Shown here piece after piece: positions 3,980 to 21,005 of a DNA stretch of 64,000 bases. The notes below the pieces were generated by a model. It did not search any database. It was not told the origin of the DNA and saw only the letters and a list, made by a program, of their open reading frames with translations. A program made the position numbers and the translations under genes. Every line of letters begins with the position of its first letter. The stretch's first letter is position 1. Source of the stretch: Nitrospirota bacterium (GTDB lineage Bacteria; Nitrospirota; UBA9217); assembly GCA_963737155.1 (NCBI GenBank), contig CAVTRN010000002.1, positions 2,304,001-2,368,000 of the forward strand. Direction: 5' to 3'.

Positions 3980-4599
3980 TGAGCCCACGCGTCGATCCCC
4001 AAGCCTGTGGCGCAGGAGACTTCGAATATCTTTAGATTAGGATTGAGGGCAAGCGAATCATTCCGGACCTTGTTCATGTCCGTGTTCATGTAGGGTAGAA
4101 GATCTATCTTGTTCAACACCAGGGCTGAGGACTCGCGGAACATGAGGGGGTATTTTAGTGGTTTGTCGTGCCCTTCTGCGATGGAGAGCACCATCATTTT
4201 CATATCCTCTCCGACCTTGAACTCGGCCGGGCAGACCAAATTCCCGACATTTTCGATAATCAGCATGTCTAGGTCCCTGAGCGGCAGTTCATCGAGCACT
4301 TCATTTATCATGTTCGCGTCCAGATGGCAGGCTCCGCCGGTGTTTATCTGAACCACTGGCACTTCAAGCGCTCCAATCCGTTCTGCGTCATCGAATTCGA
4401 CGATATCACCTTCAATCACCCCGATTTTCAGATAAGGTTTGATCGCCTGAATCGTCCGTTCGAGAAGAGTCGTCTTCCCCGCTCCCGGAGCACCCATGAG
4501 ATTGACCACATAGACGCCGGCATTGTGGAATCTCCTGCGGTTTTCTTCCGCGATCCTATCGTTAGCTTCTAGTATACGGGTGACGACCTTTACCTTCAT
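3955..4599 (-). CDS. hypB: Hydrogenase nickel-insertion GTPase HypB
   Basis: P-loop GAPGAGKT, GACHLDA, ENVGNLVCPA, NKID. Confidence 0.97.
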   Translation of the reverse strand: MKVKVVTRILEANDRIAEENRRRFHNAGVYVVNLMGAPGAGKTTLLERTIQAIKPYLKIGVIEGDIVEFDDAERIGALEVPVVQINTGGACHLDANMINEVLDELPLRDLDMLIIENVGNLVCPAEFKVGEDMKMMVLSIAEGHDKPLKYPLMFRESSALVLNKIDLLPYMNTDMNKVRNDSLALNPNLKIFEVSCATGLGIDAWAQWLRGLKS

Positions 4600-5138
4600 T
4601 CATTTATCTCCATATCGACGATTTCCATTTCCCGTCCACTTTTCATTTCAATAAATTGGGATCCACAAAGCGGGCAGGAAAAAAAGAACCCGGCATTATC
4701 CACGGTAAAATTTTTTTTGCACTCGGAGCACACGCCGCTTATAGGAACTGGTTCTATGACCAGTTGGGCATTTTCAGCCACCGTATTTGTCTTCGATGCA
4801 TCGAATGCAAACTTGAGCGCCTCGGGCATGACACCGGCCGCTTTTCCGATACGCAGCCTCACAGAATCGACCCGATGACCACCTGCCTCGCGGCATTTTT
4901 CCACGACAATATCGAGAATACCCAGAGCAAGAGCTGTTTCATGCATGGCATTTCCTGATTCAACGATGTCCTTTTCGATCTTTTGTATTGCAAATCCGGC
5001 ATGGACAAGGACATAGTCCCCCACCCGTGGTTCTTCAGGCATGAGCATGAGGTTTACTTCTTTCCTCGCTCCGAATACGTCTATTATTGCAGACAAATTA
5101 TCTATGCTGATGATTCTCGAGGGGATTGCGAGACACAT
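4596..5138 (-). CDS. hypC-hypA: HypC-HypA fusion protein
   Basis: N-terminal MCLAIP...VGDYVLVHAGFAI (HypC) reads in-frame into MHE...CSEC...CPLC (HypA, Met at 4946). Confidence 0.9.
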   Translation of the reverse strand: MCLAIPSRIISIDNLSAIIDVFGARKEVNLMLMPEEPRVGDYVLVHAGFAIQKIEKDIVESGNAMHETALALGILDIVVEKCREAGGHRVDSVRLRIGKAAGVMPEALKFAFDASKTNTVAENAQLVIEPVPISGVCSECKKNFTVDNAGFFFSCPLCGSQFIEMKSGREMEIVDMEINE

Positions 5139-5277
5139 AGAAAAATCCGATCACTACAAGAGAATTGACTGCCGATGTTACTGACACCATTTATCGCACA
5201 TCTCGTCTGTCCTGTCAAGCGCCTGCAGGACATCGTCCGGGCGGCTGCCGTGACAAGCCAAGCATAACTGACCACCG

Positions 5278-5784
5278 TCAGATAGCCTTCAGCTTTTTCA
5301 ATTCCTCGAAAATCAGATCTTTCACCTTCGGGATAACCGCTTTCAATTCATCGCTCAATTCGAGTGACCATGAGGTGACATCCTTTGGTTGAACGCCTAT
5401 GATGACCGTTTTCGGCTTCCTCCCGGTCAATTCGGCCATTTGAAGAACGTCGATGATACTAATCTGATGAAGGGAAACCTGCTGCTCTACAGCGAACTTC
5501 ATGTCGTCGGGTGAGAAACGAAACAGAGAACCAGGAGTGTCATTAGCCTCAACAACATCAATAATGATAAGGTTATCGACCTCATGGAGCAACGGGATCA
5601 ATTGATGACTGACCGTGCCCGCTTCCATCACTTTTACGTTTTCTGGAAAAGCTGTATCTTGAAGGGCGTTTATCAGATGGACGCCGAAACCATCGTCCTT
5701 GAGCAGGAGATTACCGACACCGAGTATGAGAACTTCCTGGGGAGGCGCCGAAACGCCTCCCCGGATCTGATCATCTAATATCAT
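5278..5784 (-). CDS. [NiFe]-hydrogenase maturation endopeptidase (HyaD/HybD family)
   Basis: LGVGNLLLKDDGFG, IIIDV and SLHQ motifs; lies within the hydrogenase operon. Confidence 0.93.
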   Translation of the reverse strand: MILDDQIRGGVSAPPQEVLILGVGNLLLKDDGFGVHLINALQDTAFPENVKVMEAGTVSHQLIPLLHEVDNLIIIDVVEANDTPGSLFRFSPDDMKFAVEQQVSLHQISIIDVLQMAELTGRKPKTVIIGVQPKDVTSWSLELSDELKAVIPKVKDLIFEELKKLKAI

Positions 5785-14962: not shown

Positions 14963-16120
14963 TTAAAGTCCAGCATCCTTCTTGAGGGTAGCAGCCTTGT
15001 CAGTCCGCTCCCAGGTGAACTCAGGCTCGGTTCTACCGAAGTGACCATAAGCCGCAGTTTTCTTGTAAATGGGTCTCCTCAGATCAAGCGTTGACATGAT
15101 CCCCTTGGGCGTCATGTCGAAGTTCTTTCTAATTATCTGGACAAGTTTTTCATAGGAAACCTTGCCGGTCCCGAAATCATCCACATGGATTGATACCGGT
15201 TCGGCGACGCCGATGGCGTAAGCGAGTTGGACTTCACATTCGCCAGCTATGCCTGCCGCCACAATATTCTTGGCAACATAGCGGGCCATATAAGATGCCG
15301 AACGATCAACTTTGGTCGGGTCCTTGCCTGAAAAACAACCGCCGCCGTGGCTTCCTACGCCGCCGTAAGTATCCACAATGATCTTGCGGCCGGTGAGGCC
15401 GGTGTCTCCCATGGGACCACCTGTCACGAACCTGCCTGTAGGATTGATGTGGTAGACGATCGTCTTTTCGTCGAGAAGATTTTTCGGGACCACCGGAAGG
15501 ATCACTTTCTCGACAATATCCCTGCGCAGATCCTTGAGGTCGATTTCGGGGCTGTGCTGGCTGGACACTACGATCGTATGGAGCTTGTAAGGTTTTCCGT
15601 CACGATATTCGATGGTCACCTGGGATTTTCCGTCAGGCCTAAGATAGGGTAAGATCTCTTCCTTTCTCACCTCCGAAAGCCGTCGCGTAATCTTGTGAGC
15701 AAGCATGATGGTCATGGGCATAAGTTCGGGAGTCTCATCACAAGCATACCCGAACATCAAACCCTGGTCCCCGGCGCCACCGGTGTCCACGCCCATGGCA
15801 ATGTCAGGAGACTGCGAGTGGACGGATGTGATAACCGCGCAGGTTTCCGCATCAAAACCATACTTGGCCCGAACGTATCCGATTTCCTTGATAGTCTGGC
15901 GGACGATATCCGGGATTTCGACATACCCCTTGGTTGTGATCTCACCTGCAACCATGGCAAGTCCGGTGGTGAGAAGCGTCTCGCAGGCAACGCGACTCAT
16001 AGGATCCACAGTCAATATCGCGTCAAGAACAGCGTCGGAAATCTGATCGGCTATTTTGTCTGGATGTCCCTCGGTAACCGATTCCGAGGTAAAAAGATAG
16101 TTCTTGGTGCAACTGCTCAT
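14963..16120 (-). CDS. metK: Methionine adenosyltransferase
   Basis: [43 protein letters not shown]. Confidence 0.98.
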
Positions 16121-16160
16121 CTGGTTTCCTCCTCGTTTTTAAGACCGTAAAAATTTGTTT

Positions 16161-16188
16161 TTTATAGCATAGATGCCGATTTTGTCAA
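16161..16188 (-). promoter_or_regulatory. Putative sigma70 promoter of metK-ahcY
   Basis: Minus strand TTGACA-16 nt-TATAAA. Confidence 0.55.
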
Positions 16189-16564
16189 GAGGAAAATATC
16201 ATTTTTACAAGAGATTCTGCGATACTGCATCGAAGCCGTAAGAGCCACAAGCAAGGTTGAAGAATACATTAACCGGGTTAACATTTCAACATGTTTTTTT
16301 GTATGCCGATACCAGTGTACCGATTTAAAGTTTACAGTTCACTGCCCATGAAGTTAATGACGCAGCCAGGACAATAAGGAAAATTGCCCCCGTTTTGATC
16401 GTATGGAGAGTCTGCAAATTGACGGAAATTCAATTTAAAATTTCTCGGTCATCCACCCAGGGATTTTAGAAGTGTAAAACTGATATGGTTGACAGTTGTC
16501 AATAGGGAAAATAGTCTCCTGCCCCTTTTTTTCAAAGGGTTCGTTGTTTCAATATGTTCCAAGG

Positions 16565-16735
16565 CGTAAGGAGGGACGGGGCCGACTTGTGCGACGTTTG
16601 ATCACTCTGATATTCGCGGGTTTGACCGCAAGACCTTTCTTCGCCGCGGAGCTGCCTCGCTCTATTAACGGAAGTTCGGCATTGCCTTATTCCATAGTTT
16701 GGACGAGGATTCTCCGTAAACGTGGCCGCGTCCCC
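16565..16735 (-). ncRNA. Putative bridge RNA/seekRNA of the IS1111-type element (boundaries approximate)
   Basis: Located downstream of the transposase inside the element; contains segments matching the reconstructed target (AATAG, AAACTAT) and donor junction (ATATCAGA, GTCT). Confidence 0.75.
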
Positions 16736-17009
16736 GCTTATGCCTTGGAGGTTGTTTATTGTTTGCTTGCGTCCTCCTTTGTTTTGCCTCAGTCGTTTGA
16801 GTCGCCATTGTTACCGGGTGACTTCAAGTTTTTGATCCTGTTCTTTGGAAAGCTCGATGCTTCCGCCTATGTTGACGATTTGAGCGGTTTTTACCTTTGA
16901 GGGTTGATTTTTTCTTTCATAAATGCCCCAGGATTGATTTTCCAGAGACAGTCCATGCCAAGATACCCCCTCAAGTTTTGTGTGACGCCTTGTTCTTGGG
17001 TTAATCTTC

Positions 17010-18122
17010 TTATGCGCTCTGGAGATTCACTTCCCGGGCAATTGCCCATATGAAGCCGCATAGTTCCCTGGCAATGGCGGTTACCACCTTGTTCCTGGGC
17101 TTCCCTTTGGCCGTGAGTTTACGGAACCGTCCGCAGAGACGCACCTGGGCTTTCCAGGAGATATCACAGATATTTTTCGGCAGCCCCTCCTGCCGCTTGA
17201 GGATTACCCGGCTCACTCGGGCCGGCAGACTGTAGGCTTGGGCCGCTTCAATCAATGCGCGCCTGACGTGGGTGTTTCCGGTTTTGGTGATAGCACCCCG
17301 TCTGGTGCTGTCGCCGCTGGAGTATTCGGAAGGGACCAATCCAAGGTATCCCATGAGCTGCTTGGGATTTTCAAAACGTCCCAAGTCTCCGATCTCGGCC
17401 ATGGTGGTCGCGGCAGTTACATCCGCGATGCCGCGTAACGATTGGATTGCGAGTGCAACAGGGGCCGTTCGGCATGTGGGCATAAGCGTTTGAATCTGCT
17501 CCGTAAGCCGGGCCACACGCTCTGCGCATTCCTTCACCGTGTTGATGTACTCTTGCAGCGTGATCTGCTGTGCAGGGTGTGGCATCTTGATATCAGACAA
17601 CCAGCGCATGTGGGCTTGGGTCCATGCGGTTTCTCCAGAGTAACGGTGTCCATGCCGCAGGAGCATCGCGCCTAACCTCTGCCGGGCAGTGCGATGGGCC
17701 TTGACTGCGTCTTCGCGGCATCGGGTCAGGTCTCTCATGGCTTCCTCATCCTCTTGGGGCACGTAAACAGGAGTCAGTTCTCCGGCCCGATACAGCCTGG
17801 CTAGACTTTGCGCGTCACGACGATCGGTCTTGACGCGATCTCCGCTTTTCTTGGGAATCAGCGATGGTGCCACAACCGTGCATTTGTAACCTCTCTTGGT
17901 TAGATGGCGGTATATTTCGTAACCACACGGCCCGGCTTCATAGACGAAGTGCAGTTCTGAGCCTTTGCTTTCAAGCTTTCTGACCATTTTGTCCAATGAC
18001 GCCATGTCGCCGCCGATTTTGCCGTAGTAGCGAACCTCTTGGCTGCCGCCAATTTCGGCCGTTGCTACAGCTATGGAGTTTTTTGCTGAATCGAGTCCTA
18101 CGATTGTGATAGAATCTTTCAT
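17010..18122 (-). CDS. IS110 family DEDD transposase/recombinase
   Basis: VGLD, YEAGPCG, KTDRRDA, catalytic-Ser region GLVPSEYSSG, ARELCGFIWA; ATG at 18122 after RBS AAGGAGG. Confidence 0.95.
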   Translation of the reverse strand: MKDSITIVGLDSAKNSIAVATAEIGGSQEVRYYGKIGGDMASLDKMVRKLESKGSELHFVYEAGPCGYEIYRHLTKRGYKCTVVAPSLIPKKSGDRVKTDRRDAQSLARLYRAGELTPVYVPQEDEEAMRDLTRCREDAVKAHRTARQRLGAMLLRHGHRYSGETAWTQAHMRWLSDIKMPHPAQQITLQEYINTVKECAERVARLTEQIQTLMPTCRTAPVALAIQSLRGIADVTAATTMAEIGDLGRFENPKQLMGYLGLVPSEYSSGDSTRRGAITKTGNTHVRRALIEAAQAYSLPARVSRVILKRQEGLPKNICDISWKAQVRLCGRFRKLTAKGKPRNKVVTAIARELCGFIWAIAREVNLQSA

Positions 18123-18378
18123 GACCTGCCTCCTTGTTTGTGGCTCTGTATTTGGACACCCATTGCATCCAAGTATAACCCACGGTGACAAGGGGCAGGT
18201 CACTTTTTCAACTGTCAACCATTATGTCTATTGCGGATCTCCAATATAAAAATCAACGAGGAAGGCGTAAATTATTATAGGGCTTTTGAGAACATGATTT
18301 TTTCTCGTTCTTCTTCAGGGGTGGAATACTGTTAATATTTATATTGTATAATATAATTTTATATGATATTACGTATTT

Positions 18379-18945
18379 ATGAAGCTAAGCGTATGGGCAA
18401 AGCAACAAGGTATAACCTATCAAGCGGCATGGAAATGGTGGAAGGCTGGCAAGCTGCCGGTTGAGGCTGAGCAGATGCCTACCGGAACCATCATTATAAA
18501 AGAGCAGAAAACTGCCCAAGGTTCTGTTGCTATTTATGCCCGGGTATCCAGTCATGACCAAAAGAAAGACCTGGACGGGCAGCTCGGGCGGCTTTCCGTA
18601 TATGCCGCTTCCAAAGGGTTGTCAGTTTCAAAAGCGGTGTCTGAGGTTGGATCTGGTCTTAATGGGCACAGGCCAAAACTCATGAAGCTGCTTGCCGACT
18701 CCAACGTCAGTATTATTGTCGCCTTGCATCGTGACCGGCTTATGCGGTTTGGATCTGAGTATGTAGAATCGGCACTTCGAGCTCAAGGTCGTCAACTTAT
18801 TATTGTAGACCAGACCGAGCTAAAGGACGATCTGGTGCAGGACATGATTGAAGTATTGACATCGTTTTGCGCAAGGCTCTACGGACGCCGGTCAGCGGCC
18901 AATAAAGCAAAAAAAGCTCTGGAGGCCATGGAGAATGGCAAGTAA
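18379..18945 (+). CDS. tnpA: IS607 serine recombinase TnpA
   Basis: N-terminal HTH MKLSVWAKQQGITY, catalytic YARVSS, RDRL, FCARLYGRR. Confidence 0.93.
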   Translation: MKLSVWAKQQGITYQAAWKWWKAGKLPVEAEQMPTGTIIIKEQKTAQGSVAIYARVSSHDQKKDLDGQLGRLSVYAASKGLSVSKAVSEVGSGLNGHRPKLMKLLADSNVSIIVALHRDRLMRFGSEYVESALRAQGRQLIIVDQTELKDDLVQDMIEVLTSFCARLYGRRSAANKAKKALEAMENGK

Positions 18946-20398
18946 TAAGGATAAAATGGGCAAGAGCGGCAAAAGTGAAGCACTTTCTTTTACCGCTCAA
19001 ACTTTGCTGATTGACATGTCTTACCTGGACACAAAGAAGTCTCTTTATCATGTTCTTGACGATATCGGCGACTCATACGGGCACATCAAACGCTCTCTCT
19101 TTAAAGACAGCGTTCGTTCCGGCAACAAACCCATTTCATTCAAAAATGAGTATCTTGTCAGGTATGGTATCACCGCCCGGCAGTTTAACGCTATCCGCTA
19201 CGATCTTGACGGCAATATCAGCTCCGCGGTTGAGGTATTAAAACTACGGATTGAAAAGCTCGAGCACAAAATAAAATCTGCGAGAAAATGGATTAGAACC
19301 AAAGAGAACAGTATCATTGACATACGCAAAGACACGGAATTGTCCGGACATGAGAAAACGACCAGCGTGAAGTCTCTCCGGTTTGCGGTCCACAACAAAA
19401 AACGGAAGCTCCATTCATCGGTGCAGAAACTGGAAAAGCTGAAGTACGATTTGGACAAAGGCCGAATCAGGATTTGCTTTGGGACAAAGAAACTTTTCCA
19501 CAAGCAGTTTAACCTTTCTGAAAACGATTATAAATCCCACAATAACTGGCTGTCTGCCTGGAAGGCTGCCCGAAGCTCTTCATCGTTTTGTCTGGGATCG
19601 AAGGATGAAACGGCCGGCAACCAGACCTGCACGCTTGGCGTCGACGGGTCGCTCAGGATACGGGTCCCAAACTATCTTGCCAAAAAATACGGTAAACACA
19701 TCATGGTGCCTACCGTAACATATCCTTACGGGCAGGAATATATTGAGCAGGCACTCCTGCGCGGCCAGGCAATCACCCACCGGTTTGTCCGTGGCGAGAA
19801 GGGTTGGTATCTGTATTCTTCATTTGATATCCCCCAAAGAGAAACAGTAACCGGGAAACCGCAAGAAATCGGATGTATTGGCGTAGATGCAAACGAAAAA
19901 GAGATTGCTGTTTCCGAGACTGACCGGTTCGGCAATCTTGTCTGGCACACAACGTATCCTGCATGTATAAAAGACAGAACCACGGAACAGACCAAGGCAA
20001 CTTACGGTGATATCTGCGTCGGCATTATCGACCGGTCAATTAAAACCGGGAAACCCGTCGCTCATGAAACTCTTGACTTCGAAAAGAAGAAAGCATCTCT
20101 TAAGGAACAGGGAGTAACGTATGCGCGGATGCTGTCCGGGTTCGCCTATTCCACCTTTTTAAACATGCTTGACCGCAGAGCATTTAAGGCAGGCGTCGGT
20201 GTGCTCTCCGTGAATCCTGCTTACACATCCGTTATCGGCAGAAACAATTATATGTCTCATTATGGCATTTCGCTGCATGAAGCAGCGGCGCTTGCTATTG
20301 CGAGAAGAGTTCAAGGATATTCCGAGTCTCCCATACCAGGCAGAACCGCCTCCCCTCTACCTGTAAGGAATCGAGAGGAGCACATCTGGAAGTTTTAG
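18935..20398 (+). CDS. tnpB: TnpB-related RuvC protein (possibly truncated by a TAG stop)
   Basis: RuvC-I IGVDAN, RuvC-II HETLDF, VNPAYTS, HEAAALAIARR; the frame stays open to 20623 after the TAG. Confidence 0.8.
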   Translation: MASNKDKMGKSGKSEALSFTAQTLLIDMSYLDTKKSLYHVLDDIGDSYGHIKRSLFKDSVRSGNKPISFKNEYLVRYGITARQFNAIRYDLDGNISSAVEVLKLRIEKLEHKIKSARKWIRTKENSIIDIRKDTELSGHEKTTSVKSLRFAVHNKKRKLHSSVQKLEKLKYDLDKGRIRICFGTKKLFHKQFNLSENDYKSHNNWLSAWKAARSSSSFCLGSKDETAGNQTCTLGVDGSLRIRVPNYLAKKYGKHIMVPTVTYPYGQEYIEQALLRGQAITHRFVRGEKGWYLYSSFDIPQRETVTGKPQEIGCIGVDANEKEIAVSETDRFGNLVWHTTYPACIKDRTTEQTKATYGDICVGIIDRSIKTGKPVAHETLDFEKKKASLKEQGVTYARMLSGFAYSTFLNMLDRRAFKAGVGVLSVNPAYTSVIGRNNYMSHYGISLHEAAALAIARRVQGYSESPIPGRTASPLPVRNREEHIWKF

Positions 20399-20399
20399 A

Positions 20400-20712
20400 G
20401 CAGGATGAAGACTCGGGGAGGTTGTGGAAATCATCACAGTCTCTATCAACGACGGTCCTTACAGGACTCCCCAGGCTGCGCTGAATTGCAGAAGAAGCCA
20501 TCACCCCGTCGACAGCGCAATTCTCCGGGCCACCTGCCAGCAGCAGTCTTGCTGAAAAGGCGCCAGAAGCAATCCCGATCAGCAAACAACGGGACTTGGG
20601 CGAATCAGGGCGGGAATCCCTGACGTTAACCGGCAGCAGCACTGTTCGGCTGCCGTCATAGTTATGAGAAATAAAATACTATGTTTTTAGGAACGGTGGG
20701 CAATATCTTGAC
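20400..20712 (+). ncRNA. Putative omegaRNA scaffold at the IS607 right end plus flanking guide (boundaries approximate)
   Basis: Hairpins TCAGGG-7-CCCTGA (20605-20623) and CGGCAGC-11-GCTGCCG (20631-20655) just before the right end; expected position for TnpB guide RNAs. Confidence 0.5.
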
Positions 20713-20782
20713 AAAAAAATAGCAAAGATCACCAAGAGCAACACCAGATAAACATCCGGGCTTAAATGCTGACGAAATCGGA

Positions 20783-21005
20783 GCAATCAGCATCCTGAAA
20801 AGGTCTCGCCCGGGGCAAATAAATATCTCCCGGAGCGGTGGCCGCTTGGCACAGCCTGCAGTTAACCGGTTTGCCTGGAGGAATACCTGGCCAGCTACAT
20901 AGACCATAAGCGGGAACGCGTCAAACATCTCTGCCACATCTACGAACAGAATCTGCAGCGGCTCCCAGCAGTTGCAAAGCCTGATTCCGGAATCCTCGGC
21001 ATTCA
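20783..21005 (-). pseudogene. Eroded sequence, copy 2 of the degenerate duplication; interrupted downstream by IS607
   Basis: Collinear similarity with 10160-10383. Confidence 0.5.

Follow-up and report, generated by a model that had tools for sequence, protein, structure and literature searches.

An intact, recently mobile IS1111-type element of a Nitrospirota bacterium and a two-loop RNA matching its target site and joined ends

Can the insertion site and the joined ends of a mobile element be read in the element's own non-coding RNA? The question was raised by an IS1111-type element in a 64,000-nt stretch of the genome of an uncultivated Nitrospirota bacterium (contig CAVTRN010000002.1, positions 2,304,001 to 2,368,000; hereafter the window). 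An initial annotation had proposed that this element is an intact, programmable recombinase whose downstream RNA encodes both its target and its donor junction. That IS1111 and IS110 elements choose their targets with the help of RNA guides, and that the bridge RNA has two loops, was already in print in 2024 (PMC11187229, PMC11208160). Coordinates are positions in the window, and the element is read on its minus strand.

Our analyses led us to the view, to which we assign a probability of about 0.88, that the locus holds an intact, recently mobile IS1111 element with a two-loop RNA that reads the target site and the joined ends. The ends, core, copy number, target motif, empty sites, RNA structure and guide-flank covariation on which this view is based were all established by computation.

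The element, its ends and its genomic copies

Counted with both copies of its AG core, the IS1111-type element was 1750 bp long and occupied 16480-18229 of the minus strand, boundaries that were supported by six full-length copies with the same ends, 11 empty sites and metagenome contigs. The left copy of the core lay at 18228-18229 and the right copy at 16480-16481, both on the minus strand and both placed from the copies' flanks and the empty sites. The 14-bp sub-terminal inverted repeats, at 18209-18222 (7 nt from the left end) and 16485-16498 (5 nt from the right end), both minus strand, were 100% complementary; they and the AG dinucleotides at 18229-18228 and 16481-16480 were exactly as the initial annotation had described them. 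Read on the minus strand, the order at the left end was AG, 5 nt, the 14-bp repeat, a ribosome-binding site and a 370-aa frame, and the order at the right end was 530 nt without a convincing gene, the inverted 14-bp repeat, ATC and AG. The non-coding region downstream of the frame was 530 nt long (16480-17009), compared with 107 nt upstream (18123-18229).

The gene at 17010-18122 (minus strand) encoded a transposase of 370 aa plus a stop codon, in which Pfam, NCBIfam and motif searches identified a DEDD/RuvC-like domain followed by a Tnp domain. PF01548 was matched at E 6.8e-17 (62.1 bits, cut-off 29), PF02371 at E 1.1e-23 (83.8 bits, cut-off 21.3) and the NCBIfam model NF033542, 'IS110 family RNA-guided transposase', at 273.9 bits (cut-off 140). 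Judged by motif, D11, E62, D100, D103 and S269-G270 are predicted residues of catalytic type, and the GLxPxxxxSG motif was present as GLVPSEYSSG (residues 261-270). The only solved structures (PDB) matched by sequence were those of the ISCro4 and IS621 transposases, with chain 8wt6_A at E 6.5e-11, and the TDxxD and SG stretches aligned with the ISCro4 transposase; the protein would be a DEDD/serine recombinase. The best protein match in plasmid records was about 57% identical, which indicated that this collection holds no close named relative; a protein there that carries the name 'IS110-like element ISSfr2 family transposase' (Sinorhizobium) by annotation only was 56.6% identical over 99% of the query.

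The element belongs to the IS110 family and its IS1111 group, as all of the defining features tested were found. For the group, these were sub-terminal repeats within 7-17 bp, a longer non-coding region downstream of the gene and the GLxPxxxxSG motif. For the family, insertion was site- and orientation-specific at a shared core dinucleotide, with no other duplication, in all six genomic copies.

These copies were found in a genome of two contigs and 4.84 Mb. The other five full-length copies differed from that in the window by 0, 2, 5, 5 and 5 substitutions, none of which fell inside the structured RNA described below, and the transposase frame was intact in all six. As the initial annotation had anticipated, the other five stood at the same AT-AG-TTT motif as the copy in the window, so that the flanks of all six read AT|AG...AG|TTT, in one orientation. 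Beyond this motif, position -3 was A in four of the six, and positions +4 and +5 were each G in two. Five of the six insertions were at sites crossed by no frame of at least 80 codons. The copy at 232331-234080 of contig 2 interrupted a 2.18-kb copy of an IS607-family element (231504-235434) within its TnpB-like gene, and since this IS607-family element had at least 10 other genomic copies, 97-98% identical to one another, the insertion supplied 11 paralogous empty sites. The empty target with a single AG that had been predicted from the window alone was present at all 11, which read GAT-AG-TTTGG, and the single AG fixed both the boundaries and the 2-nt core common to target and element. One of these sites, at 19663-19681 on the plus strand, lay in the IS607-family element that neighbours the IS1111 element in the window; the same site was occupied elsewhere in the genome.

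The public runs examined, in the form of Logan contigs, provided a further view of the ends. Independent soil-metagenome contigs diverged from the window's flanking sequence at 16477 on one side and 18232 on the other, in each case no more than 3 nt from the end of the element, and retained only the TTT and AAT of the flank motif, which placed the element in other flanks there. We also considered whether the conserved AT and TTT might be the element's own letters, a possibility that was rejected on the evidence of the empty sites and of a sister element that had the same ends in different flanks.

Two observations counted against this reading. The genome contained 588 ATAGTTT and 192 AATAGTTT sites, numbers near expectation, for only six copies, which indicated that the motif is permissive but not sufficient. 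No circle junction was found in the metagenome contigs, which also contained no contig bridging an empty site at the locus. Both the excess of candidate sites and the missing junction would be expected of a fixed relic that no longer moves. We consider such a relic very improbable, however, because the six copies differed by only 0-5 substitutions with every frame intact, because one of them interrupted an element that was itself 97-98% identical among its copies, because the element stood in other flanks in contigs of other samples, and because the older, decayed relatives that coexist with it in this genome looked quite different. We conclude that the element is intact and has been recently mobile.

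Those decayed relatives comprised an internally deleted piece with stop codons, two solitary left ends and two solitary pieces of donor arm plus right end, at 1293503-1294242 and 252857-253039 of contig 1 and at 819629-819804, 337106-337223 and 266569-266712 of contig 2. Their presence indicated that this lineage has carried the family for a long time.

A two-loop RNA and its matches to target and ends

The initial annotation had been drawn to four short strings in the downstream region, and all four were present on the minus strand exactly where it had reported them: AAACTAT at 16700-16694, AATAG at 16666-16662, GTCT at 16634-16631 and ATATCAGA at 16613-16606. Within the 530-nt non-coding region GTCT occurred twice (about 2 expected by chance) and AATAG once (0.5 expected), and AAACTAT and ATATCAGA were each single (0.03 and 0.008 expected). 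Such short strings alone are weak evidence; their weight comes from the flank motif, the empty sites, the loops in which they lie and covariation.

The strings fell within a structured non-coding RNA of 192 nt at 16558-16749 (minus strand), of the bridge or long seekRNA type, in which a closing stem of about 25 bp encloses a target arm and a donor arm with one internal loop each, as supported by folding and covariation. The minimum-energy fold was identical in contexts of 191 nt (z = -3.96) and 530 nt (z = -4.63). The strands of the first loop were CCAAACU plus AU on the 5' side and UAAUAGA on the 3' side; those of the second contained GGUCU on the 5' side and AUAUCAGA on the 3' side. The four segments therefore lay in two internal loops and not in stems, as a guide function demands, with the sole exception of the AU of AAACUAU, which was paired in the minimum-energy fold. 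The two pairs concerned were kept in only 8 and 25 of 38 aligned rows, and these two letters are best read as loop.

The alignment comprised 38 distinct RNA versions, taken from the element's own genome and from 79 related loci found via the transposase, of which L074, L075 and L079 were cut by contig ends; loci whose BLAST match to the RNA was shorter than 120 nt were dropped beforehand. Among the 43 pairs that RNAalifold identified in these versions, 24 showed compensatory changes. In the full structure the share of paired cells was 85.8%, compared with at most 44.4% after the partners were slid by 1-3 columns, and 30 pairs changed on both sides, a number reached by none of 500 shuffles.

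Several results on the RNA as a transcript counted against it or gave it no help. Rfam 15 had no match at E <=1 in 15000-21000, although Rfam may hold no family for IS1111 bridge RNAs. One metatranscriptome run, examined as contigs, gave only two pieces, both from relatives: a 40-nt stretch of the conserved donor-loop region (3 differences) and 221 nt of transposase (10 differences), neither of which is this element's RNA. The alignment revealed no conserved promoter directly upstream of the RNA, as the columns before the closing stem were variable, and the sister element had only about 60 nt between stop codon and RNA. Based on these two observations, we take it that the RNA arises by read-through or processing, as has been suggested for ISEc11.

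The strands of the target loop corresponded to the two sides of the insertion site. The 5' strand, CCAAACUAU at 16694-16702 (minus strand), was complementary to the top strand AT-AG-TTTGG, as expected of a right target guide, and the 3' strand, UUAAUAG at 16662-16668 (minus strand), carried the same letters as the top strand from the left flank through the core, as expected of a left target guide. In the element's own copies the 5' strand matched positions +1 to +3 in all six, and the 3' strand matched -1 and -2 in all six and -3 in four. The sister element (contig 1, 1719226-1720770), with a transposase 71% identical and the same ends, had the loop strands ACCUACUAU and CUACUAG and the flanks CTATT|AG..AG|TAGGT, such that its guides tracked its flanks.

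This covariation of guide and flank, which the initial annotation had suggested as a check among genomic copies, also held across relatives. It was scored over 49 distinct insertions for the right flank and 45 for the left, with identical flanks counted once and with loci excluded when their ends mismatched the two end motifs at more than 3 positions. Right-flank positions +1 to +5 matched the 5' loop strand in 46, 48, 47, 39 and 28 of the 49, and left-flank positions -1 to -5 matched the 3' loop strand in 45, 39, 29, 17 and 13 of the 45. When flanks were shuffled among element types, the right-flank total of 208/245 compared with a mean of 87 and the left-flank total of 143 with a mean of 93, and neither total was reached in 20000 permutations. 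With one flank per distinct guide the totals were 80/100 on the right (mean 31) and 60/95 on the left (mean 37).

We are highly confident that the target loop guides target choice. Some of the data fit less well: matches to the left guide dropped to chance past -3, L052 and L070 were poor fits (2/5 and 3/5 positions), and the right flank of L090 fitted only after a one-letter shift. The match counts by position indicated that effective recognition extends over about 2-3 nt, the 2-nt core and then 3-5 nt. The RNA of L090 also had a duplication of 13 nt immediately ahead of the 5' strand of its target loop (alignment columns 61-73).

The covariation bears directly on the suggestion that the matches arose by chance and that what folds here is an ordinary 3' untranslated structure or a terminator. 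GTCT and AATAG are indeed short enough to arise randomly, and the lack of an Rfam match is what such a structure would give. There is nonetheless next to no likelihood that this is the explanation, given the permutation results above, the covariation that backs the RNA structure, and the finding that differences among close relatives were concentrated in guide columns: between the window element and its nearest relative (transposase 91% identical), the RNA differed at 5 of 11 guide columns and at 3 of 181 others (p = 1e-5). In addition, the sole terminator-like match was on the plus strand and outside the RNA.

The donor loop is probably a guide as well, one that pairs with the joined ends, with support that is weaker than for the target loop. 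Its 5' strand, GUCU at 16631-16634 (minus strand), was complementary to the AG-AC of the circle junction, that is, to the core plus 2 nt of the left end. Its 3' strand, AUAUCAGA at 16606-16613 (minus strand), reproduced the terminal 5 nt of the right end, followed by the core and by the initial nucleotide of the left end. AUAUCAG was invariant in all 38 aligned relatives and in distant ones (51-57% protein identity), and right ends kept ATATC. As neither ever varies, a covariation test of the long donor guide is impossible, which tempers the reading of this loop as a guide, as do three further findings. The 5' donor strand pairs over only 2-4 nt, being GUCA or GUAA in most relatives (2-3 letters pair); its core-facing letters mismatched AG in most relatives; and a change in L092 at the short donor guide was uncompensated.

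These features of the donor arm would be readily explained if only the target arm guides, as in a short seekRNA, with the AUAUCAG arm serving as a scaffold for protein binding or processing and the transposase reading the ends via the 14-bp repeats. Conservation of AUAUCAG and its neighbours, GUGAUCAA, extended well past what pairing needs, and an 82-nt ISEc11 seekRNA with target matches only was sufficient for transposition, the role of the long form being left open (PMC11187229). We regard this as unlikely, if less so than the alternatives above. The 8-nt identity with the circle junction continued one letter past the core into the left end, where 0.008 occurrences were expected in 530 nt; the layout mirrored that of the IS621 donor loop, whose pairing has been solved structurally (PMC11208158); and in L098 both the left-end dinucleotide and the RNA dinucleotide facing it had changed in a compensatory manner. 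We therefore retain the reading in which the RNA has two guiding loops, one for the target and one for the joined ends.

Proposed mechanism and comparison with known systems

The joined ends would also create a promoter. TTGACA, at 16497-16502 (minus strand), would provide the -35 half, and CATAAT, at 18221-18226 (minus strand), the -10 half, 18 nt from TTGACA on the circle; among the 26 distinct end pairs of relatives, 23 retained this arrangement, with a spacer of 17-18 nt. A junction promoter is a known feature of the family, to which the title of Prosseda et al. 2006 also refers. On the circle of the window element the TTGACA-18-CATAAT promoter would drive the transposase gene, and the RNA would presumably be transcribed by read-through from it. 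A promoter at joined ends has been described for IS1111-type elements (PMC11187229).

In the mechanism that we propose, the 5' strand of the target loop, CCAAACUAU, would pair with the top strand across the AG core and the adjoining TTT(GG) of the right flank, and the 3' strand, (UU)AAUAG, with the bottom strand across the (A)AT of the left flank and on through the core. In the donor loop, AUAUCAG(A) would correspond to the right end and core, and GUCU would complement the core together with the two letters that begin the left end. Insertion at xAT-AG-TTTx would then take place in a single orientation, with an AG remaining at either junction. By analogy with ISEc11, ISKpn4, ISPa11 and IS621, we infer that the RNA is transcribed, is bound by the transposase and guides the exchange of strands.

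Similar behavior has been documented for other members of the group. According to the predictions of Durrant et al. (PMC11208160), 93% of the IS1111 elements in the catalogue have a bridge RNA, and seekRNA function was shown for four of them, ISEc11, ISKpn4, ISPst6 and ISPa11, by Siddiquee et al. in 2024 (PMC11187229). Our comparison with these four elements was by published description. The window element resembled them in its sub-terminal repeats, its long non-coding region downstream of the transposase gene, its GLxPxxxxSG motif and its two short target matches overlapping at the insertion point. It also resembled them in the natural retargeting of close relatives by guide changes, in its promoter at the joined ends and in the order of its guides, the top-strand match being 5' of the bottom-strand match, which is the reverse of the IS110 type (PMC11187229). 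It differed in having a transposase of 370 aa, compared with the 330-350 aa quoted for the family (PMC11187229), a short target match (about 2-3 nt, the 2-nt core and 3-5 nt) and an uncultivated Nitrospirota host.

The similarity to IS621 was in the target and donor internal loops, the presence of the core dinucleotide in each guide and the DEDD-plus-serine recombinase (PMC11208160, PMC11208158), as well as in having one long donor guide and another of the core plus 2 (PMC11208160). Read on the other strand, AG becomes CT, which would correspond to the IS621 core. Unlike IS621, the window element has its RNA in the right end instead of the left, its guides follow the opposite order in each loop and its sub-terminal repeats are long (PMC11208160, PMC11208158). 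In addition, a closing stem of about 25 bp encloses both arms, whereas in IS621 the arms come after a 5' stem-loop. The CT core on the other strand and the reversed guide order suggest that the IS1111 layout may be that of IS621 seen from the opposite strand.

The element adds no new principle; it is a verified further member of the published bridge- or seek-RNA-guided recombinases. With regard to the description 'intact, programmable' in the initial annotation, the intact frame and ends were borne out, and programmability would rest on the natural reprogramming of relatives and on the published IS1111 members. The value of the locus is as a clean natural data set, which includes an active element, occupied and empty copies of one site in one genome, a sister element with different guides in the same genome, and 38 distinct relatives whose guides track their flanks. 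These data show how short effective recognition is and how close relatives are retargeted by a few substitutions confined to the loops. In some relatives the donor and target cores are naturally mismatched, which bears on the mechanism of strand exchange.

Mismatched cores in relatives and neighbouring features

In relatives L057-L063, L066-L068, L084 and L096, the 5' strand of the target loop, GGAAUCC-A, read a GG core, and the other three guide strands read AG or G. The junctions of this GG group were ...CT-AG-left end and right end-GG-ATTCC, with AG on the left and GG on the right in all eight insertions for which both junctions were readable; L061, which lies at a contig end with 3 flank letters, had GG on both sides. 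A second set, L094, L098 and L111, had AG on the left and AA on the right, and there the 5' loop strand read UU. Altogether, 11 insertions had the donor-type core on the left and the target-type core (GG or AA) on the right, and none had the reverse.

The unoccupied target of the GG group was the 5' foot of a REP-like hairpin (ATTCCGGC...GCCGGAAT), which read CT-GG-ATTCC (L127-L156, in genomes G064-G067). The pattern CTRGATTCCSGC occurred 131, 38, 19 and 17 times in four genomes of the GG group, compared with 0-1 for the reversed control. In G066, 16 of its 19 hairpin sites read GG, as did nearly every site listed for G064.

The strand that IS621 cleaves first is cut immediately past the core (PMC11208158). 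When this first cut is mapped on the reversed IS1111 layout, the asymmetry of the cores would be the trace of the first exchange alone. Integration of a single strand has been argued for IS110-type elements in two preprints (10.64898/2026.08.31.748434 and 10.1101/2025.10.25.684509). A natural asymmetry of cores was not met in passages of the IS110-type literature, in which no search was aimed at it. We tentatively suggest, as a possibility that we hold to be somewhat doubtful, that mismatched cores are inherited asymmetrically and that in IS1111 elements the exchange of one strand fixes the product, provided that RNA and protein are arranged as in IS621 viewed from its opposite strand. If this suggestion is correct, the relatives would provide natural-history evidence in agreement with the copy-out/paste-in single-strand models of the 2025-2026 preprints, and the window element would be a permissive (7-8 bp), self-consistent member with which to test strand exchange.

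The size of the element varied among the relatives. The window element and its closest relative had about 200 nt of extra sequence between the stop codon and the RNA (16750-17009, minus strand) and were 1750 and 1721 bp long, compared with about 1545 bp for the sister element and most relatives. The extra stretch folds, and a frame of 56 codons (16891-17061) runs into it. In L048, a copy of the closest relative was 3454 bp instead of 1721 bp, with a gene for an IS66-family transposase (4292-5740; PF03050, E 1.4e-43) between the RNA and the right end, which represents a nested insertion and not cargo.

The neighbouring IS607-family element occupied 18319-20500 of the plus strand, with 89 bp between it and the left end of its IS1111 neighbour. 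Its TnpA, a serine recombinase encoded at 18379-18945, matched NF033518 at 197.8 bits. The 487-aa TnpB-related protein encoded at 18935-20398 had no Pfam match and only sub-threshold matches to NCBIfam TnpB models. With these two neighbours, the window has two different RNA-guided mobile systems side by side.

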